Shown here in pieces: positions 23,863 to 43,873 of a DNA stretch of 64,000 nucleotides. Location of the stretch: assembly GCF_029227855.1 (NCBI RefSeq), contig NZ_CP074356.1, one strand, 5' to 3'. The notes under the pieces are model-generated. The model saw only the letters and a program-made list of their open reading frames with translations, was not told the DNA's origin and ran no database searches. The translations under genes were made by a program, and so were the position numbers. The stretch's first letter is position 1; each line of letters starts with the position of its first letter. Origin of the DNA: Escherichia coli. GTDB lineage: Bacteria > Pseudomonadota > Gammaproteobacteria > Enterobacterales > Enterobacteriaceae.

Positions 23863-24396
23863 ATGAACGCAAAAATCAAATACGGCCTGTCAGCTGCAGT
23901 TCTGGCGCTGATTGGAGCAGGCGCATCAGCTCCTCAGATACTTGACCAGTTTCTGGATGAAAAAGAGGGTAACCACACTACGGCATACCGCGATGGTTCC
24001 GGCAACTGGACCATCTGTCGGGGGGCCACGATGGTGGATGGAAAACCCGTTTTTCCCGGTATGAAACTGTCGAAGGAAAAATGCGACCAGGTCAACGCCA
24101 TTGAGCGTGATAAGGCGCTGGCATGGGTGGAGAAAAACATCAAAGTGCCATTGAGCGAACCCCAGAAAGCGGGGATCGCGTCATTCTGTCCGTACAACAT
24201 TGGTCCCGGTAAGTGTTTCCCGTCGACGTTTTATAAACGAATTAATGCAGGTGATCGCAGGGGAGCGTGTGAGGCGATTCGCTGGTGGATTAAGGACGGT
24301 GGCAGAGACTGCCGTATTCGTTCAAACAACTGCTACGGTCAGGTATCCCGTCGTGACCAGGAGAGCGCGCTGGCGTGCTGGGGTATCGACAGATAA
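23863..24396 (+). CDS. R: SAR endolysin (phage lysozyme, R21/P1 Lyz type)
   Basis: N-terminal signal-anchor (LSAAVLALIGAGASA) and E..D..T catalytic spacing (EGNHTTAYRDGSGNWT). Confidence 0.9.
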   Translation: MNAKIKYGLSAAVLALIGAGASAPQILDQFLDEKEGNHTTAYRDGSGNWTICRGATMVDGKPVFPGMKLSKEKCDQVNAIERDKALAWVEKNIKVPLSEPQKAGIASFCPYNIGPGKCFPSTFYKRINAGDRRGACEAIRWWIKDGGRDCRIRSNNCYGQVSRRDQESALACWGIDR

Positions 24397-32499: not shown

Positions 32500-32775
32500 A
32501 TGTCGATGTACACAACCGCCCAGCTGCTGGCGGCAAATGAGCAGAAATTTAAGTTTGATCCGCTGTTTCTGCGTCTCTTTTTCCGTGAGAGCTATCCCTT
32601 CACCACGGAGAAAGTCTATCTCTCACAAATTCCGGGGCTGGTAAACATGGCGCTGTACGTTTCGCCGATTGTTTCCGGTGAGGTTATCCGCTCCCGTGGC
32701 GGCTCCACCTCTGAATTTACGCCGGGATATGTCAAGCCGAAGCACTTAGCATGGCTTTCTGAGGCTTTCGTGTAG
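32500..32775 (+). pseudogene. E: Major capsid protein E, 5' fragment (codons 1-82) disrupted by insertion
   Basis: MSMYTTAQLLAANEQKFKFDPLFLRLFFRESYPF...EFTPGYVKPKH matches lambda gpE, then reads into foreign sequence (LAWLSEAFV, stop at 32775). Confidence 0.85.
32735..32744 (+). repeat. Left copy of 10-bp direct repeat AGCCGAAGCA (putative att core of the inserted element)
   Basis: Identical 10-mer at 43864..43873 exactly where E homology resumes. Confidence 0.6.
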
Positions 32776-32907
32776 CTGCTGGTTTTTACACTTAATCTTT
32801 TGATAATAAAGAATAAGTTTATCTGGCGCTTTCACTGAATTTTCCTCGTTATCTGTGTGTTGCAATCATCTCTGTATTGCAGCTTGTATTGCTTTTTGGG
32901 GCTAAAA

Positions 32908-34143
32908 ATGGCTGGCGAGAACAAACTGAGCGACAAAGCGCTTAAAGGATATCTGGGGAAACCCAGAGAAAAGCAGATCACCATTGCTGATGGAAAGGGG
33001 CTTTCTATTCGTGTGAGTACTAAAGGGGCTGTGAGCTTTGTTTTCTTCTACAGGTTAGCAGGTGGCCGGGCTGCTCCGGTCTGGCTAACGTTGGGTAAAT
33101 ATCCTGATATGTCACTCAAACAGGCAAGGGAAAAGCGCGACGAGTGCCGTGGTTGGTTGGCTGACAAACGTGATCCGCGTATCCAGATTAAGATTCAGGC
33201 TGAAGAACGCTTAAAGCCGGTCACAGTGGAGGATGCACTAAATTACTGGTATGAAAATTACTGTAAGGTGCGTCGTAAAACTCATGCTGTAACGCTTGGC
33301 AGATTTCGAAAGCATATCTTTCCCTATATCGGTCATTTGCCCGTAAATGACACTCACCTATATGAATAGCTGGACTGTTTTGACCGAATTAAACGTAATG
33401 CACCAGTTATGGCGGCGTATGTTTTTTCTGACACTAAATTAGCTCTTCGTTTTTGTCGGGTACGCCAGTACGCGACGTGTGATGCTTTAAAGGATTTGCG
33501 CATGAGTGATGTGGGGCAGATTGCAGGTAAGCGGGATCGGGTTCTGGATGAGGTCGAACTCGGCCAGCTCTGGAAGGCAATTTTTGTCGAGCCTGATTTA
33601 AAACTAATGTCTGAATACACGCGAAAAATGTTTGTGCTTTGTACAGTATTTGGATGTCGAATGAGTGAAGCCCGATTATCAGAATGGAGCGAATGGGATC
33701 TCGAAAGTTGGGTTTGGACTGTGCCAAAAGATCACTCAAAAACTGGTGTTGAAATCGTCAGACCAGTACCTGAAATTCTACGACAGTGGGTAACGGATGT
33801 TCACGAAGAGACAAAACATACTGGTTATGTGCTGGGAAGTCTGCGAATTAGAGAAAGCGTAAGCAAGATTGGGGGGAAAATCGGTAAACGTTTGGGCCAT
33901 GAAAAACAATGGTCACTACACGACCTTAGAAGAACGCTATCTACTCATCTAAGTGATCTCGGTGTTGAATTTTATGTAGTAGAACAACTGTTAGGCCATG
34001 CGCTACCTGGCGTGGCAGGTGTTTACAACCGGAGTAAGTTTATGGCTAAAAAACTGGATGCTCTGGAACTCTGGACTACATATCTCAATAGCATCGCAGC
34101 TGCTGATTCAAAAGTGACAATCCTCAAACAAAAGGCTGGTTAG
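32908..34143 (+). pseudogene. int: P4-type tyrosine integrase interrupted by an in-frame amber codon (TAG at 33367..33369)
   Basis: Track ORFs 32857..33369 and 33409..34143 are in the same frame; P4-int-like N-terminus (..KGLSIRVSTKGAVSFVFFYR..GKYPDMSLKQAREKRDE..); TAG sits where homologues have Trp. Confidence 0.8.
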
Positions 34144-34144
34144 C

Positions 34145-34375
34145 ATGAAAAAAATGGCAATTGTTGATAAAAAGGGTCTGGAGTACATTCCTAACATTGA
34201 CCGAATGATCCGTGAGAAAGAATGTCGGGAGCTAACTACTCTTGCGAACAGCACACGCTGGAAGCTGGAGAAGGAAGGAAAATTTCCTAAGCGGATCAAG
34301 ATTGGTTCCACTGCTGTTGCATATCGTCTTTCAGAAGTGCAGGCATGGATTCGAGGTGAGTGGGAAACAACTTAA
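34145..34375 (+). CDS. alpA: AlpA-family transcriptional regulator / excisionase-like protein
   Basis: 76 aa, HTH (..CRELTTLANSTRWKLEKEGKFPKRIKIGSTAVAYRLSEVQAWI..) directly after int. Confidence 0.75.
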   Translation: MKKMAIVDKKGLEYIPNIDRMIREKECRELTTLANSTRWKLEKEGKFPKRIKIGSTAVAYRLSEVQAWIRGEWETT

Positions 34376-34382
34376 CTATTAG

Positions 34383-35213
34383 GTGGGCATTGTGGCTATA
34401 TTTCATTATACAGATCTTTTTGGTTTGAAAGGTATATTAGACTCTAATTCTTTATGGGCTACAAACATATATTTCTTAAATGATAAAGAGGAGTCTAACC
34501 ATGGATGTGAATGCTTTCGAAATACAATTAAAATAGTTGATGACAATATCATTCCAAAAGATAAGAAAACTATTTTGCTCAAGTCTCTTGACATGTATGA
34601 GAAAGGGAGGTTACAAAAAGAAAAAGGGATTGATAAACATGTTTATAGCATCTCTTTTTGTAAGGAAAACGATAAGTTAAGTCAGTGGAGAGGTTACGGA
34701 AATAAACAGGGTGTTTGCATTGAGTTTGATGCGGATGAACTTGTGAGCTTTTCTCAAAATATTTATTTAAATTGTGTTGCACATGATGTTATATATTCAA
34801 ATAATAACGATATTACTAAGATGAGTAAGGAGTTGGGAGAGTTTTTTTCTTGTAATGGTATTAATATTAAAGAAATGAATGATCATTTTGTAACAATGGT
34901 CTCTACGTATCAATTTATATCTAAATACATCCCATTTTTTAAACATCCTAGTTTTATCGAAGAGAATGAATTTAGATTGGTATTTACTCCGTGGATGCAA
35001 ATGCCAGATGTGCACTTCAGAATAAATAATAATGGGATCATCCCTTATATCATCATTGATAATAAAGATAATAGAAAGTTACCAATTAAAAGCATTACAA
35101 TTGGCCCGACAAACGATTATGATTTCATTGAGGCTGGTATAAAAATGTTCTTGGATTCAAGAGGATTTAGTTCTGTGGAAATTAAATCCTCATCAATTCC
35201 ATTCAGGGGGTAA
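34383..35213 (+). CDS. DUF2971-like protein (276 aa), AT-rich cargo gene
   Basis: N-terminal IFHYTDLFGLKGILDSNSLWATNIYFLNDKEE resembles the DUF2971 signature; very low GC; start could be GTG 34383 or GTG 34391. Confidence 0.6.
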   Translation: MGIVAIFHYTDLFGLKGILDSNSLWATNIYFLNDKEESNHGCECFRNTIKIVDDNIIPKDKKTILLKSLDMYEKGRLQKEKGIDKHVYSISFCKENDKLSQWRGYGNKQGVCIEFDADELVSFSQNIYLNCVAHDVIYSNNNDITKMSKELGEFFSCNGINIKEMNDHFVTMVSTYQFISKYIPFFKHPSFIEENEFRLVFTPWMQMPDVHFRINNNGIIPYIIIDNKDNRKLPIKSITIGPTNDYDFIEAGIKMFLDSRGFSSVEIKSSSIPFRG

Positions 35214-35258
35214 GGATTAACACTTTTAATCTATGATATTATAAAAATGGTGGATAAA

Positions 35259-35278
35259 GGCGACCAGAATTGGTCGCC
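35259..35278. terminator. Bidirectional hairpin between convergent cargo genes
   Basis: AGGCGACCAGAATTGGTCGCC perfect inverted repeat. Confidence 0.4.
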
Positions 35279-35344
35279 AATGTGAGTATATAGTTAGCCT
35301 TAATCAGAATACGAGGTTATCGCCTGATAGGCAATGTGAACAGT

Positions 35345-35701
35345 TCAATATTTAGGTGGTTCAACAAGAGCGTTTATCATTGCTCTCAAATTATCGCGAA
35401 CACTTATCCAAGTCTGTTCTGCTCGTTCTAACTCATCAGTGTACAACTTTAATGTTTTATCTATGCCATATGTGGCTATTAAATTTATAGCTTCTTGTAA
35501 TTTTTCAGGATTATTCCTTCTTGGGGGAGTGAATATACCACGGATTTTTCCGGTAATTAAAGCTTTACGGTGTCTACATAGAATACCTTTACTTCCTGCT
35601 GGACAATTACAAGTCATGATTAGCGAGCCAGAATCGTTTGATACAGTGACTATGTATACATCCAAACTACTGCTACTTGTTGCGAAGAATTCGTATTTCA
35701 T
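35345..35701 (-). CDS. Small SWIM-type zinc-finger protein (118 aa)
   Basis: CNCPAGSKGILCRH (CxC..CxH) motif; AT-rich. Confidence 0.55.
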   Translation of the reverse strand: MKYEFFATSSSSLDVYIVTVSNDSGSLIMTCNCPAGSKGILCRHRKALITGKIRGIFTPPRRNNPEKLQEAINLIATYGIDKTLKLYTDELERAEQTWISVRDNLRAMINALVEPPKY

Positions 35702-35728
35702 GTGTTAGCTCCTTGACTTCAATTATTC

Positions 35729-35860
35729 TTATCCTTTTGGTTCAATACCGCGCCGTAGCAGCTCTTTGCGCCCTAATTCTTTAAGCCAGTTGGCTAGGCT
35801 TATGCCGTCGCTCTGCGCTTCTTTGTCGAATTGCTCTTTTAGCTCTGGAGAAATTCGCAT
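35729..35860 (-). CDS. Small ribbon-helix-helix-like protein (43 aa; longer in-frame form to 36043 possible)
   Basis: MRISPELKEQFDKEAQSDGISLANWLKELGRKELLRRGIEPKG; immediately upstream of the SWIM gene on the same strand. Confidence 0.45.
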   Translation of the reverse strand: MRISPELKEQFDKEAQSDGISLANWLKELGRKELLRRGIEPKG

Positions 35861-36059
35861 TCTGAATTGTGGAGATTGCCCATCACCCTTAGGACTTTTA
35901 TCGCGTTTGATCGTTGACAAGTGACCACCTATTGAATTAGCCTTTTCATTGTTAGGTGACCACCTTAACACGGGGGCACTTAAAAAAGCAAAGCCCGAAG
36001 GTGCTGGGAACACCAACGGGCTTCTAACCACCAACGATAGCAACAGTATCGAGGTAGCT

Positions 36060-36263
36060 ATGAGAAATCATACCACACACCCGCAAGGGCGGGACCCGCA
36101 CAACCTGAATAAATACATCTGGCGTTTTATCGCCTTGAGTACGGCACAACCGCGCATGATTACCATCGAGGCCATCAGCGAACAGGAAGCCCGCCAGCAA
36201 TCCCCAACTGGCTGCGTGATGGTATTCGCCGCCCGTATTCGTCAGGAGGTGTGCCGTGCTTAA
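36060..36263 (+). CDS. Small hypothetical satellite protein (67 aa)
   Basis: ATG with GAGG RBS; first of five tightly coupled small genes preceding the primase. Confidence 0.4.
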   Translation: MRNHTTHPQGRDPHNLNKYIWRFIALSTAQPRMITIEAISEQEARQQSPTGCVMVFAARIRQEVCRA

Positions 36264-36441
36264 AACCTTCCGTGTATTTGCCCGAGCTGTTAACCCACTG
36301 GGCCACACAATTGGTATCACTCAGAACGTGAAGGCTGTTAATGTTCAGACGGCTATTGCTGCGGTGAGAAGCGAATCATCAGAATATGGCTTATCACAAG
36401 TCATTATTTCAGCAGTGTATGAATTAAAAGAGGTGCATTAA
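36256..36441 (+). CDS. Small hypothetical satellite protein (61 aa)
   Basis: Track ORF, overlaps neighbours by a few nt. Confidence 0.4.
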   Translation: MLKTFRVFARAVNPLGHTIGITQNVKAVNVQTAIAAVRSESSEYGLSQVIISAVYELKEVH

Positions 36442-36632
36442 TGCAGGAAATCACATTACACGAAGCCGCTGAACGTGCGCACCAGACAGAAATTATTTGC
36501 CGCCTTCTTGAGGTATACCCGAACAAAATTACAGATGCTGATATATCCGCGCTGGCGAGCCTACTGGCGCGCCTTTCGGGAAGTGTCGCTAGTTTCCTGA
36601 TTGAGGAAGAAAGTAAGCTGGTGGGGGATTAA
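36441..36632 (+). CDS. Small hypothetical satellite protein (63 aa)
   Basis: Track ORF, start overlaps upstream stop. Confidence 0.4.
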   Translation: MQEITLHEAAERAHQTEIICRLLEVYPNKITDADISALASLLARLSGSVASFLIEEESKLVGD

Positions 36633-36854
36633 ATGAATACAGAACGGGAAGTCTTTTTTAAATTGTTAGCATGTGCAGAAAGTTCATTAACTTTAAATAA
36701 TTCAGCAAAAGCAATATTAAATATGTGGCTTGATTGCATAAATGACAATGAAGATGCAAATATTGCTTATGGCCTGTTGTCACTTATTGATGAATCAGCA
36801 GAAAAACTCAATGACGCAATAAATAGTGCCCTGCTATCAAATAAGTCGAGTTAA
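36633..36854 (+). CDS. Small hypothetical satellite protein (73 aa)
   Basis: Track ORF. Confidence 0.4.
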   Translation: MNTEREVFFKLLACAESSLTLNNSAKAILNMWLDCINDNEDANIAYGLLSLIDESAEKLNDAINSALLSNKSS

Positions 36855-36871
36855 GTCGAGGAATAAATAAT

Positions 36872-37171
36872 ATGGAAATGAAAAATTCTGGCTTTATTGC
36901 CAGCGGCCCCGCTCGGCCTGAATTTATGAACGGCGATATTTACCGCGATAAATACGGCGGCACGGTAACGATTAAAGGCGTGGCAGAACGGCGCATCACT
37001 TACCGCCGTGAGGGGTATAGCTATGACTGCGTGATGCCTGTTTATCAGTTCCGGCGTGATTTTTCCCTGGTATATGCCGCACCCCGCAGTAAGCCCATCA
37101 GCAGGGAAAAAGCGCGGGGAAACATCCAGAAAATGAAAAGCATGATTAACGCATTCAGGGGCAAAAAATGA
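36872..37171 (+). CDS. Small hypothetical satellite protein (99 aa)
   Basis: Track ORF, stop overlaps primase start. Confidence 0.45.
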   Translation: MEMKNSGFIASGPARPEFMNGDIYRDKYGGTVTIKGVAERRITYRREGYSYDCVMPVYQFRRDFSLVYAAPRSKPISREKARGNIQKMKSMINAFRGKK

Positions 37172-38919
37172 AACTGGCACCGAACTTAAAAAAACAGCCA
37201 CGCGACAGACTGACAGAGGTAATCATCTTTGCAGGTAGTGATGCGTGGAGCCATGCGAAAGAGTGGCGGGAATGGGCGGGTAAACATATTGCCGCCGACG
37301 ATGTGCCGCCTGTCGTGCTGGCTGATGAGCAACTGAAAAATATCACCGATTACCGGATCATTGATGAAGATCGTCAGTGTGTGCGTGTTTACCGCGCAGG
37401 ACATATCACAGAGCACAGCATGACGCAGATTGTTACGTTACTGGCTGTGGCTGGAGTGAAGACCGTACACGAATACGCGGGGATTACTGACACCAGCCCA
37501 GTGGATTTATCCGAGCAGTTGCCGCGACTCAAAGAGGAATGCGAGCGTGGGGAAAGTCTGGTGCTTAATCTTCCGACGAAGCAAAAGGCGCAACTTTCAC
37601 AGATGGCAGACAGTGAACGTGCACAACTACTTGCCGATCGCTTTGATGGTGTGTGTGTTCATGCAGAAAGTGAAATCGTCCACGTATGGCGCGGCGGGGT
37701 ATGGTGTCCGGTCAGCACAATGGAGCTGAGCCGCGAAATGGTGGCGATCTATTCAGAGCACAGGGCCACGTTCAGCAAACGTGTAATCAATAACGCCGTG
37801 GAAGCGTTAAAAGTTATTGCCGACCCCATGGGGGAGCCGTCCGGTGATTTGCTACCGTTCACTAATGGTGTGCTTAACCTGAAAACGGGGGAATTTTCTC
37901 CGCACTCGCCGGAGCACTGGAGCACCACGCACAATGGCATTGAGTACACGCCACCAGTAGCAGGGGAAAACATCCGCGATAATGCGCCAAATTTCCATAA
38001 ATGGCTTGAACATGCTGCAAGAAAAGACCCGCGCAAGATGATGCGTATATGTGCCGCGTTATACATGATTATGGCGAACCGCTACGACTGGCAGATGTTC
38101 ATTGAGGCCACCGGAGACGGGGGAAGCGGTAAGAGTACATTTACCCATATTGCCACCCTGCTTGCTGGCAAACAGAACACCGTAAGCGCGGAGATGACAT
38201 CACTCGATGATGCAGGAGGGCGCGCGCAGGTTGTCGGGAGTCGTCTTATCGTCCTTGCCGATCAGCCGAAATATACGGGGGAAGGCACGGGCATCAAGAA
38301 AATCACGGGAGGCGATCCCGTTGAAATTAACCCGAAATATGAGAAGCGATTCACGACGATAATAAGGGCGGTGGTACTGGCAACCAATAACGACCCGATG
38401 ATCTTTACCGAACGGGCCGGAGGTGTGTCACGCCGTCGGGTGATTTTCCGGTTCGACAACATTGTAAGGGAGGACGAAAAAGACAAGGAATTACCGGAAA
38501 AGATAGCGGCAGAAATCCCCGTAATTATCCGCCGCTTGCTGGCTAATTTTGCTGACCCTGAAAAGGCACGGGCTTTATTACTGGAACAGCGTGACGGTGA
38601 TGAAGCTCTGGCAATAAAGCAGCAAACGGATCCGGTTGTTGAGCTTTGCGCGGCGCTGGAGTTTCTGGAGGAAGCTCGTGGGCTAATGATGGGCGGTGGT
38701 GGTGACACCGTGAAGTACACGACCAGAAACAGCCTTTACCGTGTCTATATGGCCTTCATGGCATACACAGGAAAGGGGAAATGTTTGAGCGTGAATGAGT
38801 TCGGAAAGGCTATGAGGTCAGCGGCGAAAGTTTACGGATATGAATATATTACGCGAAAAGTTAAGGGAGTCACGCAGACCAACGCAACGACTACTGATGA
38901 TTGCGATGCGTTTTTATAA
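37168..38919 (+). CDS. Primase/replicase (P4 alpha / D5-type), 583 aa
   Basis: Walker A GDGGSGKST in the C-terminal half; large N-terminal domain; followed by iterons. Confidence 0.8.
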   Translation: MKLAPNLKKQPRDRLTEVIIFAGSDAWSHAKEWREWAGKHIAADDVPPVVLADEQLKNITDYRIIDEDRQCVRVYRAGHITEHSMTQIVTLLAVAGVKTVHEYAGITDTSPVDLSEQLPRLKEECERGESLVLNLPTKQKAQLSQMADSERAQLLADRFDGVCVHAESEIVHVWRGGVWCPVSTMELSREMVAIYSEHRATFSKRVINNAVEALKVIADPMGEPSGDLLPFTNGVLNLKTGEFSPHSPEHWSTTHNGIEYTPPVAGENIRDNAPNFHKWLEHAARKDPRKMMRICAALYMIMANRYDWQMFIEATGDGGSGKSTFTHIATLLAGKQNTVSAEMTSLDDAGGRAQVVGSRLIVLADQPKYTGEGTGIKKITGGDPVEINPKYEKRFTTIIRAVVLATNNDPMIFTERAGGVSRRRVIFRFDNIVREDEKDKELPEKIAAEIPVIIRRLLANFADPEKARALLLEQRDGDEALAIKQQTDPVVELCAALEFLEEARGLMMGGGGDTVKYTTRNSLYRVYMAFMAYTGKGKCLSVNEFGKAMRSAAKVYGYEYITRKVKGVTQTNATTTDDCDAFL

Positions 38920-38935
38920 AAAATGGCAATGGTTA

Positions 38936-39170
38936 TCTACCTTGTCTACCTGACTGAAAGAAAATACTTTTATTTCAATGTATTAATGCAGGTAGATAAC
39001 TATTTTTCACTGTCTACCTGTTATCTACCTTATCTACCCATTTTTGTAGACAGGTAAGGAGACGGGTAGAGATGAGGTAGACAGCTATTTGGGGCTGTCT
39101 ACCTCCCTGAAACCCGCGCCATTACTGGCCTGATAACTAATCAGGTAGACAAGGTAGACAAGGTGGTGGT
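38936..39170. repeat. Iteron array (putative satellite replication origin)
   Basis: About 12 copies of (A/G)TCTACC / GGTAGA(C/T) in both orientations within ~235 bp. Confidence 0.7.
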
Positions 39171-39208
39171 GCACAAAAAACTTTTTAAACGAGGGGGTAA
39201 AAATAAAA

Positions 39209-39466
39209 ATGCACACTTCAGGAAAACTGAACAAACATATAAAGCCACATTACCGCGCCCTTGATATGGCTGAACACTGGCTAAGGGTGGCGATTAAGGC
39301 AATAGACCGCAACGCCGGGGAAGGATACGCGAAAGCACATCCCGAACTGATAAGCGCATTCATGACAACGGCGGCTGCAAACTTTGCCACGCTGACCGAA
39401 CGGGAGATTGCTGAAGCGGAGGAAGTGACAACAATCAATATTAAGTCCGGAGAGCAGGCAGCATGA
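39209..39466 (+). CDS. Hypothetical satellite protein (85 aa)
   Basis: Track ORF, translationally coupled to the SSB gene. Confidence 0.45.
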   Translation: MHTSGKLNKHIKPHYRALDMAEHWLRVAIKAIDRNAGEGYAKAHPELISAFMTTAAANFATLTEREIAEAEEVTTINIKSGEQAA

Positions 39467-39912
39467 CGGCGCAAATATCAGTTTACGGGCGGTTGGTGGA
39501 CGACCCGCAGACAAAACAGACCAGCAAGGGCACCCCCATGACGCTGGCGCGTATGGCGGTATCACTGCCCTGCAGTCAGTCGGATGACGGTCTGGCGACG
39601 TTGTGGTTATCTGTCCTGGCGTTTGGCAGACAAGCCGACGCGCTGGCAAAGCATCACAAAGGCGAACTCCTGAGCGTGGCGGGTAACATGCAGATGAGCC
39701 AGTGGACTGGACAGAACGGCGAAACGCGGCAGGGCTGGCAGGTTATCGCAGACAGCGTAATCAGTGCGCGATCGGTGCGACCGGGCGGCAAAAAAGGCCA
39801 ACAGGGGCAGGCTACTGACGCACTGAACAGAGCAAAACAACAGGCAGATCAGCAAGGAAGCCAGCCACCAGAGGGAGATAATGAGCAATGGGGAGATGAT
39901 ATCCCGTTTTAA
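39463..39912 (+). CDS. ssb: Single-stranded DNA-binding protein
   Basis: OB-fold-like N-terminus, Gly/Gln-rich linker and acidic C-terminal tail ending DDIPF. Confidence 0.8.
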   Translation: MTAQISVYGRLVDDPQTKQTSKGTPMTLARMAVSLPCSQSDDGLATLWLSVLAFGRQADALAKHHKGELLSVAGNMQMSQWTGQNGETRQGWQVIADSVISARSVRPGGKKGQQGQATDALNRAKQQADQQGSQPPEGDNEQWGDDIPF

Positions 39913-40128
39913 ATATTGCCAATAAAAAAAGCCGGAAAAAATAAATTTTCCGGCATGCTACATAAATCCCGACCAAAGGGAGTGAAGATATTAACACTAA
40001 TTGTCCGCACTGAAGTTGTCACACCAAAACTTTATACAACATTGCACTCGGTTGCATGTGTTCGCATGACAAATATCGGTGATAGCATATATCCACAATT
40101 ATTTTTAATGAATGCAAAGAGGATGCGT

Positions 40129-41169
40129 ATGGTTGATTTATATTCGCCTACTCAGCTTGTACAGGTAGTTAATGCTGTAGATGTACAAAAACAACTAAAT
40201 GCGTTGTTTACCAGTTTGTTTTTTACTCGCTCGGTAATGTTTGAATCGCGCGATATTATTCTTGATACAATCGACGATCCAAATATCCCAATTGCAGCGT
40301 TTTGTTCTCCTATGGTGGGTAGTAAAGTTTCACGTGACGAAGGGTACGAATCAAAAACAATTCGTCCAGGCTATATGAAGCCGAAAAGCAGCATTGATCC
40401 AAATAAGTTAGCTGTGCGCCCTGCTGGTGTGTCACCTGAGCAATACAATGCTTTTGGGGCGCGTAATATTAAAGTTAAACAGGCGATTGTAAATCAGGCT
40501 AAAGCTATTCGTGCACGTATTGAATGGCTTGCTGTTCAGGCAATCACAACGGGGAAAAATATCATTGAGGGCGATGGTATTGAACGTTATGAGCTGGACT
40601 GGAATATAAAACCACAAAATATCATCACTCAGTCTGGCGGTACTGAGTGGTCAGGTAAGGATAAAGAAACTTTTGATCCAAATGATGATATTGAGAGCTA
40701 CGCAGAATTTAGTGAGGGCGTCACTAATATCATCATTATGGGTGGTAATGTATGGAAGAAATACCGTTCATTCAGAGCGATAAAAGAGGCTTTGGATACC
40801 CGTCGTGGTTCTAATTCCGAACTGGAAACGGCCCTTAAAGACCTTGGTGATTCGGTGAGTTTTAAAGGGTATATGGGCGATGTTGCGATTGTTGTTTACA
40901 GCGGGCGTTATACCGACGAGGACGGAACAGAAAAACATTTCCTTGATCCTGATTTGATGGTGCTTGGCAATACGGCTCTTCAGGGGATTGTCGCCTATGG
41001 CGGTATTCAGGATCCGGAGCTAATCCGAATGGGGCTGACTAAAGCCGAACTTGCACCGAAAAACTATATTGTGCCTGGTGATCCGGCTATTGAATATGTG
41101 CAGACACATTCAGCACCACAGCCAATACCGGCCCGCATCAATCGTTTTGTTACCGTTCGCATTGGCTAA
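40129..41169 (+). CDS. Satellite-encoded major capsid protein, lambda gpE family (346 aa)
   Basis: Collinear similarity to gpE (ITQSGGTEWSGKDKETFDPNDDIESYA..., ..LDTRRGSNSELETALKDLG..GDVAIVVYSGRY..MVLGNT..); start set at MVDLYSPTQ with AGGA RBS. Confidence 0.8.
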   Translation: MVDLYSPTQLVQVVNAVDVQKQLNALFTSLFFTRSVMFESRDIILDTIDDPNIPIAAFCSPMVGSKVSRDEGYESKTIRPGYMKPKSSIDPNKLAVRPAGVSPEQYNAFGARNIKVKQAIVNQAKAIRARIEWLAVQAITTGKNIIEGDGIERYELDWNIKPQNIITQSGGTEWSGKDKETFDPNDDIESYAEFSEGVTNIIIMGGNVWKKYRSFRAIKEALDTRRGSNSELETALKDLGDSVSFKGYMGDVAIVVYSGRYTDEDGTEKHFLDPDLMVLGNTALQGIVAYGGIQDPELIRMGLTKAELAPKNYIVPGDPAIEYVQTHSAPQPIPARINRFVTVRIG

Positions 41170-41178
41170 GGGGGAGCA

Positions 41179-41520
41179 ATGGCTACTCATTACACTGAAC
41201 TCATGGCTGGCACTGAAGCACTGGTGACTACGCTGGGGATATTTTCAGCTAATAAAGGGGTAATTCCTGCATTTACGCCACTGATGCAGGAAGATGCAAC
41301 AGGTGCACTGGTGGTATGGGATGGTTCGAGCGTAGGTAAAGCGGTTTATGTTTCCGCTGTACAAATCGACACCGCGAAAAAAACACAGGCTCAGGTCTAT
41401 AAGACAGGTGTCTTAAATGTTGATGCTCTGAACTGGCCTGAGTCTGTTAAAGAACTGTCAGTAAAGGTTGCAGCGTTTGTTGGCTCAGGTATTTCTGTTC
41501 AGCCGCTGGCTCGTGTGTAA
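41179..41520 (+). CDS. Satellite-encoded head decoration protein, lambda gpD-like (113 aa)
   Basis: Shares THY, TPLM, LVVWDG, YKTG, WPE, AF.G..IS motifs with gpD at matching positions. Confidence 0.7.
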   Translation: MATHYTELMAGTEALVTTLGIFSANKGVIPAFTPLMQEDATGALVVWDGSSVGKAVYVSAVQIDTAKKTQAQVYKTGVLNVDALNWPESVKELSVKVAAFVGSGISVQPLARV

Positions 41521-41531
41521 AGGGGGATACA

Positions 41532-41915
41532 ATGCAGAATGATTACAATGACCTTAAGCCAATTGCCGAAATGATGTACCCGAATCAAGCTGTAGAGGAA
41601 TTAAAAGCTATCGCTGACAAAATGTGTTTAAGCGAGCGCCTTGTTGATATGAATCAGGTGATGGAAATTACAACCCTGAGTCGTCGTACACTGCTAAACC
41701 TTGAGGCTAGTGGAGAGTTCCCGGAGCGTGTGCAGGTTACGGAAGGGCGTAAGGCCTGGTATTTAAGTGAAGTGATCGACTGGATAAATAATATTCCTCG
41801 CGCTTCTGAATATTGCCGCGTACCTGTCCCAAAAAAGCCAGATGCGGCGCTATGCCTCAAGATTGAGCGTGTACGCCGCAATGCACGGGATGGTCGCTAT
41901 AAGCTGATTGGTTGA
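41532..41915 (+). CDS. AlpA/MerR-like winged-HTH protein immediately upstream of the satellite cos
   Basis: 127 aa with HTH (..MNQVMEITTLSRRTLLNLEASGEFPERVQVTEGRKAWYLSEVIDWINN..). Confidence 0.6.
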   Translation: MQNDYNDLKPIAEMMYPNQAVEELKAIADKMCLSERLVDMNQVMEITTLSRRTLLNLEASGEFPERVQVTEGRKAWYLSEVIDWINNIPRASEYCRVPVPKKPDAALCLKIERVRRNARDGRYKLIG

Positions 41916-41939
41916 TGAAATTAGGACCCGCTCTGGCTG

Positions 41940-42145
41940 GCGGGTCCTTTCCGGCGATCCAGAACGTTACGGGGCGTCAGGCGCGCAGTTTTTCGCTATT
42001 TGTGAAAATTTTCCTGTTTAAGGCGTTTCCGTTCTTCTTCGCCGTAACTTAATGTTTTTATTAAAAACACCCCCTAAAAAGAAAGGAAACGACAGGTGCT
42101 AAAAACAGGCTTTTTGGCCTCTGTCGTTTCCTTTCTCTGGTTTTG
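41940..42145 (+). other. Second cos site, belonging to the satellite: altered cohesive-end sequence (GGGCGTCAGGCG at 41972..41983) with lambda-type cosB elements
   Basis: GGGTCCTTTCCGGCGATCC..GTTACG|GGGCGTCAGGCG|CGCAGTTTTTCGCTATTTGTGAAAATTTTCCTGTTTAAGGCGTTTCCGTTCTTCTTCG..GAAAGGAAACGACAGGTG..TCTGTCGTTTCCTTTCTC tracks lambda cos closely. Confidence 0.75.
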
Positions 42146-42481
42146 TTGCCATCCGTCGCGGTCTATCACCAGAAAAAATCTTATCCCTGAGTTGAATCAG
42201 GCCCTATTCAGAAGCGGCCAATAACGCGCCGCTAGCTTCACTTCATAGTTATGGCCTACTTCTGCGCCATTGCAATTGCTTTATGCGCCTTGATGGTGGA
42301 ATATAGAGCAAGCAGTTTGCGAATAACAAAGTTTCATATGTTTTTTGCTGTGTGGCTAGACAACTTTACAGCAGAGTTTTGTGTCAGTTCTTTATGTGTG
42401 CAAGCAAGCTTGAGGGGGAATTACTTCTGGCTGTATCTTTGCTTAAGAACAGCAATAATTTAATCATAAGGAAATGTATAT

Positions 42482-42504
42482 AAGCCTGATTAAATTTCAG
42501 GCTT
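42482..42504 (-). terminator. Hairpin terminator after the TIR gene
   Basis: AAGCCTGA-TTAAATT-TCAGGCTT just 3' of the stop. Confidence 0.4.
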
Positions 42505-42513
42505 ATTGAAATG

Positions 42514-43656
42514 TTAACTCCTTATTAGAGAGTAAATTCCATCCTCTTTAAGGAAGTCTATTACTTCAAAGAATGAGATAAAGAATTCCCAAGAACCAAA
42601 AGCATATGCATGAATTTCGTAAGGTGCAAAATGGAATCTAAATCCATCACTATTTATTGTGAACGAGTCTAAGTTACTATCCATGATACCCGTTGCAAAC
42701 GTACTAATGTCGTCCTCACTTGGTTTTTCACCAGTTTTCTCCCAAAATTCACGAGCTGATTCAGAGATTATTTTTTGTTTTATCTTATTAATCGCTTCTT
42801 GCTCTTTCCCTTCGGTAAATACATCCCATAAACTAAATTTGTATGCGTAGTCATCCTTGGTTATTACGAAATTACTAGTTTCAAAATGACTGTTAGGGTG
42901 TGCTGCTCCCGCACCATACCAATGTACGGAATGAAGGATGCTCATGACATTTTCGTTACAGTATGAGATGTTATAACTTTCATTATAGGAACTAGTGTAA
43001 GTGTGTTTATATTCTTCATCCCAATATGGTGTTCCTGGCCATAGTGATGTGCGTTCAGAAAAAATATGTAAAGCCGCTTTTCCTGAAAAGTAATCACTAA
43101 TGAGTTTTGCTGATTTCGGTAATGTATGGCTTTCAATTCTTGGATATGCTATTTCAATTTCATGCCCTGGGATCTTGTTATATTCTTCCTTGAAAACCTC
43201 GCTGCTAAAGTTAAATGGCCCATAAGTGATACCTTGAGATATTTCAAGTTTTTGTTGCGATGCTGCTAATCTTAAAGATCTAGATAAAATGTCCCAACCA
43301 TCATTTCTCTTAAAATCAATGAATTGGAGCTTGCTTGATATGTAGGCGGGTACTTCGCAATCATCAATAAGTAATGGTATCACGAACACATCATCTGGTT
43401 TGTAATACTTTAGTTTATCAATGGCGTCATTTATTTCGCGGCGAATATAACCATTTTTCTGAGTGCTCACTTTGCTAAGGATAAGGATTATCAAGTTTGA
43501 ATTAGCGAAGTTTTTTTGGATTTCATAATCCCAGTTTACGCCAGCGGGTATATCTTTTACATCCATCCAAGGGGAATATCCTCCACTTTTTAGCCTTTCA
43601 TAGATTTCTTCAGTTATCGTTTCATCTTCTTTTGCATGAGCAAGAAAAATTTTCAT
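42514..43656 (-). CDS. TIR-domain protein with ~250-aa C-terminal domain of unknown function (380 aa); candidate anti-phage defence gene
   Basis: N-terminus MKIFLAHAKEDE...SNLIILILSKVS..YIRREINDAIDK..VIPLLIDD fits the bacterial TIR pattern; AAGGA RBS; AT-rich; between satellite cos and right att repeat. Confidence 0.75.
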   Translation of the reverse strand: MKIFLAHAKEDETITEEIYERLKSGGYSPWMDVKDIPAGVNWDYEIQKNFANSNLIILILSKVSTQKNGYIRREINDAIDKLKYYKPDDVFVIPLLIDDCEVPAYISSKLQFIDFKRNDGWDILSRSLRLAASQQKLEISQGITYGPFNFSSEVFKEEYNKIPGHEIEIAYPRIESHTLPKSAKLISDYFSGKAALHIFSERTSLWPGTPYWDEEYKHTYTSSYNESYNISYCNENVMSILHSVHWYGAGAAHPNSHFETSNFVITKDDYAYKFSLWDVFTEGKEQEAINKIKQKIISESAREFWEKTGEKPSEDDISTFATGIMDSNLDSFTINSDGFRFHFAPYEIHAYAFGSWEFFISFFEVIDFLKEDGIYSLIRS

Positions 43657-43863
43657 TGAATATTCCTTTATAATTTAACTAATTAAGTGAAGGAGGCTTT
43701 ACTTGGCTGTGTTAGAAAAAATTCGGTTTGTTTTTTGTACGATGCCAAGAAGGCTTTTCCCTAACCATGTATTGCAGCATGTATTGCTACGTAATTCTGC
43801 ACCCTCTCATTTATAAAATAAATCTCTGTTAAATCAAGTATCTTTTTTCTATTTGACTCATGT

Positions 43864-43873
43864 AGCCGAAGCA
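43864..43873 (+). repeat. Right copy of 10-bp direct repeat AGCCGAAGCA
   Basis: Identical to 32735..32744; E reading frame resumes immediately after. Confidence 0.6.

Follow-up and report, generated by a model that had tools for sequence, protein, structure and literature searches.

A TIR-DUF3298 gene carried by a helper-embedded satellite of Escherichia coli is a candidate single-protein abortive-infection system

Introduction

TIR domains are an immune currency common to bacteria, plants and animals, and each new sensor found coupled to them reveals signs of infection that cells are able to read. Here we describe a gene for a 380-amino-acid (aa) protein composed of a TIR domain and a DUF3298-type domain (TIR-DUF3298), carried by a phage satellite within a 64,000-nucleotide stretch of Escherichia coli DNA (assembly GCF_029227855.1, contig NZ_CP074356.1; this whole stretch is referred to as the window). 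Our reading, to which we assign a probability of roughly 55%, is that this satellite cargo gene specifies an abortive-infection system consisting of one soluble protein of the cytoplasm, in which a sensor resembling the lysozyme receptor RsiV would control an NAD+-depleting TIR domain. We arrive at it because a sensor-NADase anatomy is combined here with positions where mobile elements keep anti-phage genes.

Several described systems are close to this protein in one respect or another. In SPARTA, the TIR-APAZ protein becomes an active NAD(P)ase upon oligomerisation. TIR-SAVED of the CBASS systems, Cat1 of type III CRISPR systems and TIR-STING combine a sensor or ligand-binding domain with a TIR NADase in one polypeptide, assemble upon ligand binding, and need a co-encoded partner that synthesises a nucleotide. 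Association of TIR domains with each other is a common requirement for catalysis, as in SPARTA, TIR-SAVED, Cat1 and SARM1. Thoeris ThsB represents yet another variant, a stand-alone bacterial TIR protein implicated in infection sensing.

The only understood member of the DUF3298 fold is RsiV of Bacillus subtilis, the anti-sigma-V factor and lysozyme receptor, which is membrane-anchored and extracytoplasmic and whose output is regulated proteolysis. Its ligand contacts are S169, P259 and Y261, and mutation of these residues abolishes binding (PMC5014341). As for the carrier, phage-inducible chromosomal islands (PICIs) of the 11capE type, embedded in their helper prophages at a 10-bp identity block, have been reported (PMC10111431), and that paper mentions neither cargo, nor TIR domains, nor defence.

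Results and discussion

Domain organization of the protein

The 380-codon frame is intact, from an ATG start to a TAA stop, and the opposite-strand open reading frames (ORFs) inside it are short and unsupported. The product is 100% identical to WP_000688840.1 (UniProt A0A0H3MIF0), labelled there as "TIR domain-containing protein", and the identical protein is encoded in 15 of the 5426 complete E. coli genomes. The coordinates of all features are collected in Table 1.

Residues 3-122 match the Pfam family TIR_2 (PF13676) with E 5.3e-21. The nearest solved TIR domain in the Protein Data Bank (PDB) is that of SPARTA TIR-APAZ, found by phmmer with the single sequence (4e-8), with the family profile (2.5e-12) and by Foldseek (3e-7); it is followed in the PDB searches by AbTir, Cat1 and SARM1. 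In the AlphaFold2 (AF2) model, the TIR half resembles its counterparts in SPARTA, Cat1, SARM1 and Hydra TRR-2. The closest relatives, in PADLOC as well as among solved structures, degrade NAD+ as effectors and include SPARTA TIR-APAZ, TIR-SAVED, Cat1 and retron-TIR; ThsB, which makes a signal, is matched less well. E74 is aligned with E77, the catalytic glutamate of SPARTA TIR-APAZ. Across 102 diverse members of the family, no column is invariant apart from E74 and W30, and W42, the counterpart of an aromatic BB-loop residue in SPARTA, is conserved in 99%. The TIR domain is hence predicted to hydrolyse NAD+ around E74.

The C-terminal half belongs to a different fold. Pfam assigns residues 278-362 to DUF3298 (E 2.5e-10), and for residues 166-256 it gives a weak match to PdaC/DUF4163 (E 0.024 with the single sequence). 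When the family profile was compared with the PDB, it yielded 3s5t (2e-18), 3cyg (3e-17), the RsiV-lysozyme complex 5jen (2.6e-8) and MPT64 (5.8e-7), with residues 157-376 aligned to residues 11-213 of 3cyg and residues 170-368 aligned to RsiV. The Foldseek matches of this half (3cyg, 1.8e-12; 5jen, 6.6e-10; also 3s5t and 4e72) cover both lobes, including the N-terminal DUF4163/PdaC lobe, and the similarity to RsiV extends to the two-lobed arrangement as a whole (TM score 0.65 on the target). In the DUF3298 lobe, the motif F-x-x-Y-x-x-x-P-Y-x-x-G aligns with 3s5t, 3cyg, MPT64 and RsiV. Neither a signal peptide nor a membrane segment was found in the protein: the highest 19-residue Kyte-Doolittle mean is 1.27, and the N-terminus starts directly at strand beta-A of the TIR domain. 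Thus, the C-terminal domain is a cytoplasmic member of the DUF4163/DUF3298 fold, which includes RsiV, MPT64, the N-terminal part of PdaC and BF2082.

Both halves had been considered in an earlier note on this locus, which claimed a TIR-like domain at the N-terminus and left the rest of the protein as uncharacterised, with a tentative comparison to DUF3298. The profile and structure searches recovered the TIR fold, with E74 conserved, and turned the comparison into an assignment, so that the second domain can now be named as well.

The AF2 model, built on the 102-sequence alignment, has a mean predicted local distance difference test (pLDDT) score of 93.6 and a predicted template modelling (pTM) score of 0.70, and Foldseek found the TIR-DUF3298 architecture as a whole in none of the solved structures. 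The orientation of the two halves differs between this model and the AlphaFold Database model of the same protein (TM score 0.66 at 100% identity), hence the linker between them is probably flexible, judging by the models. It is also the least conserved segment, with 16% all-pairs identity. The TIR domain is more conserved than the C-terminal one, both among the enterobacterial orthologues (79% vs 61% identity) and overall (40% vs 26%), and the faster divergence of the C-terminal domain outside its motifs fits a combination of an evolving sensor with a fixed effector.

According to the profile alignment, the contact positions of RsiV are situated within the two most conserved C-terminal motifs of the TIR family, so that the loops contacting lysozyme in RsiV correspond to these motifs. 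Here S169 aligns with A252 of G-A-G-A-A-H, and the counterparts of P259 and Y261 are A350 and A352 in F-x-P-Y-x-x-x-x-Y-A-x-G. Hence, as far as can be judged from aligned sequences, the conserved face of the protein appears to coincide with the one face of the fold whose binding has been mapped experimentally. Orthology to RsiV itself was considered and rejected, as none of the three contact residues is kept and a TIR domain takes the place of the anti-sigma N-terminus; in addition, the GAAH motif is missing from RsiV, and cellular location and output differ, being cytoplasmic and TIR-based in the protein considered here.

Distribution and genomic company of the family

Proteins of about 380 aa combining TIR_2 and DUF3298 form 79 representative clusters (50% identity) with E<=1e-30; thousands more homologues fall below this threshold, many of them sharing the TIR domain only. 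The hosts are Enterobacterales, Burkholderiales, Xanthomonadales, Pseudomonas, Rhizobiales, Sphingomonas, Bacteroidota and one cyanobacterium, and all members are unnamed. Their sources include bacteria of soil, water and plants as well as metagenomes (Burkholderia, Xanthomonas, Collimonas, Azonexus, Sphingomonas, Rhizobium, cyanobacteria). On plasmids, tblastn found two distant full-length members only, on Agrobacterium and Rhizobium megaplasmids. The scan for related loci was based on 14 closer sequences; the 102-sequence alignment has no stretch conserved enough.

The family genes tend to be found among defence genes or on mobile elements. In Yersinia, one integrative element pairs the family gene with Gabija plus dGTPase, with DRT3, with PDC-S06 or with Tmn, and these neighbours were confirmed with PADLOC (E 1e-65 to 1e-246). 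The gene adjoins AbiTii in Cronobacter (PADLOC-verified) and GmrSD, HEPN and RelA-SpoT genes in Pantoea; in Sphingomonas it resides on a mobilisable element, accompanied by genes for an MmeI-type methylase and for a DUF2971 protein. In Burkholderia and Xanthomonas the family genes lie within prophages, in the former case with PDC-S73. Three further contexts come from IMG/VR: a 67%-identical orthologue located terminally in a satellite-like element of another kind, which encodes a primase and a protease-capsid fusion protein (L026, 11,131 bp), a member that borders the integrase gene where a prophage ends (L027), and a 36%-identical member in the moron slot of a lambdoid prophage, between the Q antiterminator and endolysin genes (L032, 5034-8078). 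The slot between Q and the endolysin gene is the position of the toxin genes in Shiga toxin phages. The defence-type setting claimed for the window gene is thus shared by its relatives elsewhere, which adjoin verified systems.

Nucleotide similarity between the window and the orthologues found elsewhere is limited to the ORF, therefore the gene travels alone. Consistent with this, no partner gene is conserved in the more than ten independent contexts compared.

Two deviant forms of the protein were also observed. One (P0019, common in Salmonella Derby; 307 aa, 379 member sequences) is truncated at the N-terminus, so that some 70 residues are missing from the start of its TIR domain; either decay of the gene or a contig-end artefact may account for this. 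The other (P0205, 653 aa) has a right-handed beta-helix (Pfam Beta_helix, 1.6e-10) added after the DUF3298 domain, a fold common among carbohydrate-binding proteins and phage tailspikes.

Comparison with described defence systems

Matches in PADLOC v2, NCBIfam and PHROGs are partial and cover the TIR part only. We considered three assignments to known systems, and all of them were rejected. SPARTA has the closest TIR domain, but the C-terminal half here is DUF4163/DUF3298 rather than APAZ (PADLOC Aga_TIR matches residues 2-118 only), and the cassette has no Argonaute gene; because of this C-terminal fold, recognition guided by a nucleic acid, as in SPARTA, would not apply, and activation of an NAD(P)ase by oligomerisation could be shared by analogy only.

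In the case of Thoeris, the NCBIfam model ThcB4 scored 16.4 bits against a cut-off of 220, Pfam ThsB_TIR had E 0.27, and in no context does a gene for ThsA or another effector adjoin the family gene. As for CBASS, Pycsar and type III CRISPR, the match to PADLOC SAVED_TIR (9e-8) is confined to the TIR part (residues 2-82), and neither a cyclase nor a Cas10 partner was seen in the contexts examined. The likeness to TIR-SAVED, Cat1 and TIR-STING is hence in the plan, a sensor fused to a TIR NADase, whereas the sensor fold is unrelated to SAVED, CARF and STING and no nucleotide-synthesising partner is conserved.

The satellite and its variable cargo slot

The satellite occupies positions 32735-43873 (about 11.1 kb) and is inserted, co-oriented, inside the lambda-E-like capsid gene of a prophage. 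Its ends are marked by the 10-bp repeat AGCCGAAGCA, which has exactly two copies within the window (at 32735 and 43864), and in silico removal of the 11,129 bp between them yields an uninterrupted lambda-E-like major capsid ORF of the prophage. The satellite genes code for an integrase, a primase, a single-stranded DNA-binding protein, capsid (E-like) and decoration (D-like) proteins of its own, and also an AlpA-like regulator. The size of about 11 kb, the integrase gene at the left end, the primase, the AlpA-like regulator, the lambda-E-like capsid gene and the 10-bp block are all those of the 11capE type. Thus, the carrier is an already known kind of element, an 11capE-type helper-embedded PICI, and the cargo gene is not a known one.

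The stretch 41940-42146 resembles an intergenic stretch of lambdoid phages and prophages (88-92% identity), is found in 3185 E. coli genomes and, by comparison with the cosN-cosB sequence of lambda, is presumably the cos region. In the sister satellites the small-terminase gene comes after this cos-like stretch, directly so in most of them (the Nu1-like gene was compared in L016, L018, L019, L021 and L022). It is missing from the window satellite and from SX45 (L015), where the cargo cassette starts instead (42012-42137). Without a Nu1-like gene of its own, the satellite would rely wholly on the helper terminase for packaging.

The backbone of the satellite is present in about 400 of 5426 E. 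coli genomes, in 114 of them at >=99% identity, and just 15 of these approximately 400 genomes have the TIR-DUF3298 gene. The homology to the sister satellites ends at 42012-42137 and restarts at 43846-43853, few bases short of the att (attachment site) core. In the sisters, the same right-end slot is filled with an AbiJ-like gene (PADLOC AbiJ, E 2.2e-21), with a gene for a 438-aa hypothetical protein, or with a DUF3892 gene plus small ORFs, and in some of them it has no sizeable gene. The annotated cargo genes nearest to the right att site (attR), i.e. the AbiJ-like, 438-aa and DUF3892 ones, are on the strand opposite to the late genes of the satellite and helper, the same as the TIR gene.

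A second AT-rich cargo island (GC content about 0.34) follows the integrase gene at the left end, where genes for a DUF2971 protein and a SWIM zinc-finger protein are situated in the window and a PDC-S35 TIR protein in the sister satellite L016. Cargo thus seems to be exchangeable at both ends of the satellite.

A variable AT-rich gene on the opposite strand by att, alternating with other defence genes among nearly identical elements, is characteristic of the P4 and P2 hotspots and of PICI-encoded immune systems. The present slot differs from them in its carrier, an 11capE-type PICI, and in that the family is not among the named hotspot systems.

The earlier note had described the gene at 42514-43656 as AT-rich single-gene cargo at a satellite end, between cos and the right att repeat, with a ribosome-binding site and terminator of its own. 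Most of this description stands. The intact minus-strand ORF is the sole sizeable one in the cassette, it is flanked by the lambdoid-like stretch and the att core, and the site is variable, sister elements having other genes there, including that for the AbiJ-like abortive-infection protein. The GC content of the ORF (35.6%) is far below that of the satellite core (47.9% at 36000-42150) and of the downstream prophage genes (57.5%), and an AAGGA ribosome-binding site precedes the start codon. As for the terminator, a hairpin is present, but it is poor in its U-tract and is not listed by the strict scan, so that its role as the gene's own terminator is plausible.

Table 1. Features of the TIR-DUF3298 gene, its product and the carrier satellite (window positions, except for the loci of sister satellites given with their own handles)
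Feature	Coordinates	Strand	Evidence
Coding sequence of the 380-aa TIR-DUF3298 protein, stop codon included	42514..43656	minus	ORF list; identity to WP_000688840.1; homologues of about 380 aa
TIR domain, residues 1-122	43291..43656	minus	Pfam TIR_2 E 5.3e-21; SPARTA TIR-APAZ the best solved relatives
Codon of E74, predicted catalytic glutamate	43435-43437	minus	alignment to SPARTA E77; conservation
Codon of invariant W30	43567-43569	minus	102-sequence alignment
Codon of BB-loop W42	43531-43533	minus	99% conserved in the 102-sequence alignment
Linker (residues 123-156), made up of one helix and a stretch of lower confidence	43189..43290	minus	AF2 secondary structure; pLDDT 77-83 around residues 131-150
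DUF4163/DUF3298 (RsiV-like) domain, residues 157-380, presumed sensor	42517..43188	minus	Pfam; profile against PDB; Foldseek
Motif W-Y-G-A-G-A-A-H-P-N, residues 246-255	about 42892-42921	minus	family conservation
Motif F-x-P-Y-x-x-x-x-Y-A-x-G, residues 343-354	42595-42630	minus	family conservation
Ribosome-binding site AAGGA, 7 nt before ATG	43664..43668	minus	direct sequence reading
Candidate sigma-70 promoter TTGATT-N16-TATAAA, weak, putative	43810..43837	minus	relaxed scan by script
Possible terminator hairpin AAGCCTGA-N7-TCAGGCTT, directly 3' of the stop codon	42482..42504	minus	RNAfold, 10-bp stem; U-tract poor
Variable cargo cassette, 1.7 kb, TIR-DUF3298 gene as sole sizeable ORF	42138..43845		homology breaks against sister satellites
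Right att core AGCCGAAGCA	43864..43873		only two copies in the window; deletion restores the capsid ORF
Left att core AGCCGAAGCA	32735-32744		the other copy of the repeat
Lambda-type cos region of the satellite (presumed)	41940..42146	plus	88-92% identity to a lambdoid intergenic stretch
attR-nearest annotated cargo genes of sister satellites	L015 7500-8816; L016 8451-9212; L019 5950-6711; L020 6159-6446	opposite to late genes	annotation
Left-slot DUF2971 protein	34383-35213	plus	Pfam 3e-11; weak PADLOC PDC-S31
Left-slot SWIM zinc-finger protein	35345-35701	minus	weak PDC-S62

Proposed mechanism

If the protein is an abortive-infection system, it could act as follows. The RsiV-like domain would recognise infection by binding a signal, be it a protein of the phage or a molecule arising from infection, probably on the face where the GAGAAH and PY....YA.G loops lie. 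Binding of the ligand would draw TIR domains together, as in other sensor-TIR fusions, and their association would complete a composite active site around E74. The TIR domain would then hydrolyse NAD(P)+, so that growth of the infected cell would cease ahead of maturation of the competing phage.

The gene is antisense to the late operon of the helper, which reads through the satellite; hence, speculatively, helper induction could silence the gene and so spare the helper. By the same speculation, late read-through during helper induction could act antisense to attR-proximal cargo genes in general.

Several observations weigh against the abortive-infection reading. Neither PADLOC v2 (2023) nor NCBIfam (June 2026) has a full-length model for TIR-DUF3298; in the searchable literature, nothing was found that joins DUF3298 or RsiV with TIR or anti-phage terms or that names WP_000688840. 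A strict consensus scan lists neither a promoter nor a terminator for the gene, which thus has no clear promoter. All characterised or solved DUF3298 relatives are, to our knowledge, extracytoplasmic, and a cytoplasmic sensor is thus an extrapolation. Both conserved loops are also kept in DUF3298 proteins without a TIR domain, and they may be structural rather than ligand-binding. Defence modules commonly exchange the effectors attached to a sensor domain; here there was no sign of such swapping, as TIR_2 is present in all of the best 120 among the 318 matches to the C-terminal profile. Finally, tblastn found no copy in 50,697 deposited phage genomes. In addition, the DefensePredictor paper and its supplements, in the parts available to us, list neither the protein nor DUF3298.

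As to the nature of the trigger, the homology to RsiV brings to mind a muralytic enzyme of the phage, such as an endolysin of the lysozyme type or a lysin that is injected, or else a molecule which this enzyme releases from the cell wall. By this analogy such a trigger is conceivable, and we consider it improbable. The residues by which RsiV contacts its ligand are not kept, and lambdoid prophage L032 has a family member right beside its own endolysin gene. The helper of the window satellite, in turn, has what appears to be a signal-anchor-release (SAR) endolysin, which is compatible with a muralytic trigger, since an enzyme of this type is exported and does not accumulate in the cytoplasm, and could thus escape a cytoplasmic sensor.

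Alternative explanations

The alternative that survives best, in itself unlikely, is that the TIR domain generates a signal, such as a nucleotide derived from ADP-ribose (ADPR) as in the case of ThsB, or ADP-ribosylates a target, with the executor encoded elsewhere in the genome, in the phage or in the host. Bacterial TIR domains can indeed cyclise or transfer ADPR, and weak matches to ThsB were obtained (PADLOC ThsB, 8.5e-5; NCBIfam Thoeris III ThcB4 as given above), but these are far under the family cut-offs and the matches to SPARTA-type NADases are much stronger. Further points against this alternative are the absence of a ThsA-like or any other conserved neighbour in the more than ten contexts compared and the mobility of the cassette as one gene.

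Next in order, and improbable in our opinion, is a role in the service of the satellite or prophage itself: the protein could be an addiction-type toxin, a modulator of helper development acting via NAD+, or a counter-defence enzyme destroying immune nucleotides of the host. Against it, there is no antitoxin-like partner; furthermore, members of the family are also found in non-phage islands dense with defence genes, the slot alternates with an AbiJ-like gene, and a sensor joined to an NADase with a conserved catalytic glutamate follows the known logic of abortive-infection effectors. What speaks for such a role is the constant residence of the gene on mobile elements, its late-region position between Q and the endolysin gene in one lambdoid prophage, and its antisense orientation relative to the helper late operon in the window, due to which its expression could follow helper induction.

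It seems very unlikely that the protein is a virulence factor similar to TcpC or TcpB, which would disturb Toll-like receptor/MyD88 signalling of a eukaryotic host. TIR proteins of bacterial pathogens can dampen host immunity, and some carriers of the gene are extraintestinal pathogenic E. coli, e.g. strain IAI39; however, the family extends to soil, water and plant bacteria and metagenomes, there is no secretion signal, the neighbours are phage-defence genes, and the TIR domain, which belongs to the TIR_2/SPARTA type, stands at the N-terminus. An inert or decaying passenger lacking a current function, as might be suggested by N-terminally truncated copies like that of Salmonella Derby and by the in-frame stop in the integrase of the window satellite, is hardly credible, given an intact ORF conserved at 100% over 61 member sequences and 15 complete genomes, and the (nearly) invariant catalytic and motif residues across a very large family, i.e. 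obvious purifying selection.

Implications of the abortive-infection reading

The family couples a predicted SPARTA-like NADase to a fold whose sole understood member is a lysozyme receptor, and, despite its size and its spread over Proteobacteria, Bacteroidota and Cyanobacteria, we found for it no name, no defence-database model and no literature. An abortive-infection module with a TIR effector and this sensor fold would be within the established pattern of sensor-TIR fusions, the fold being new to bacterial immunity. If the gene is defensive, it is a compact system of 1.1 kb, possibly with a new type of trigger. If, moreover, the trigger were muralytic, this would be a new principle of sensing, with the phage lysis machinery wired to NAD+ depletion, and the first cytoplasmic function of the DUF3298 fold. 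Helper-embedded PICIs, described earlier for their integration biology only, seem to carry exchangeable defence cargo at both ends, and would hence join phage-phage competition besides parasitising their helper.

Other features of the satellite and its helper

The helper endolysin gene (23863-24396, plus strand) was read by eye; its product looks like a SAR lysozyme of the phage 21 type, with a hydrophobic N-terminus followed by an E...D...T catalytic pattern. The integrase frame of the satellite (32857-34143) is split by one in-frame stop at 33367-33369 (...THLYE*LDCFDRIK...); hence, the window copy may be unable to excise, in which case the helper capsid gene would be permanently disrupted. 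In E. coli IAI39 (L001, 3665-6147 and 8713-10533), the same satellite adjoins tRNA-Arg, with an IS3 element abutting its integrase gene; the annotation gives its primase an internal stop, and the helper prophage has lost its left half. This copy of the satellite is degraded, yet its TIR gene is intact.

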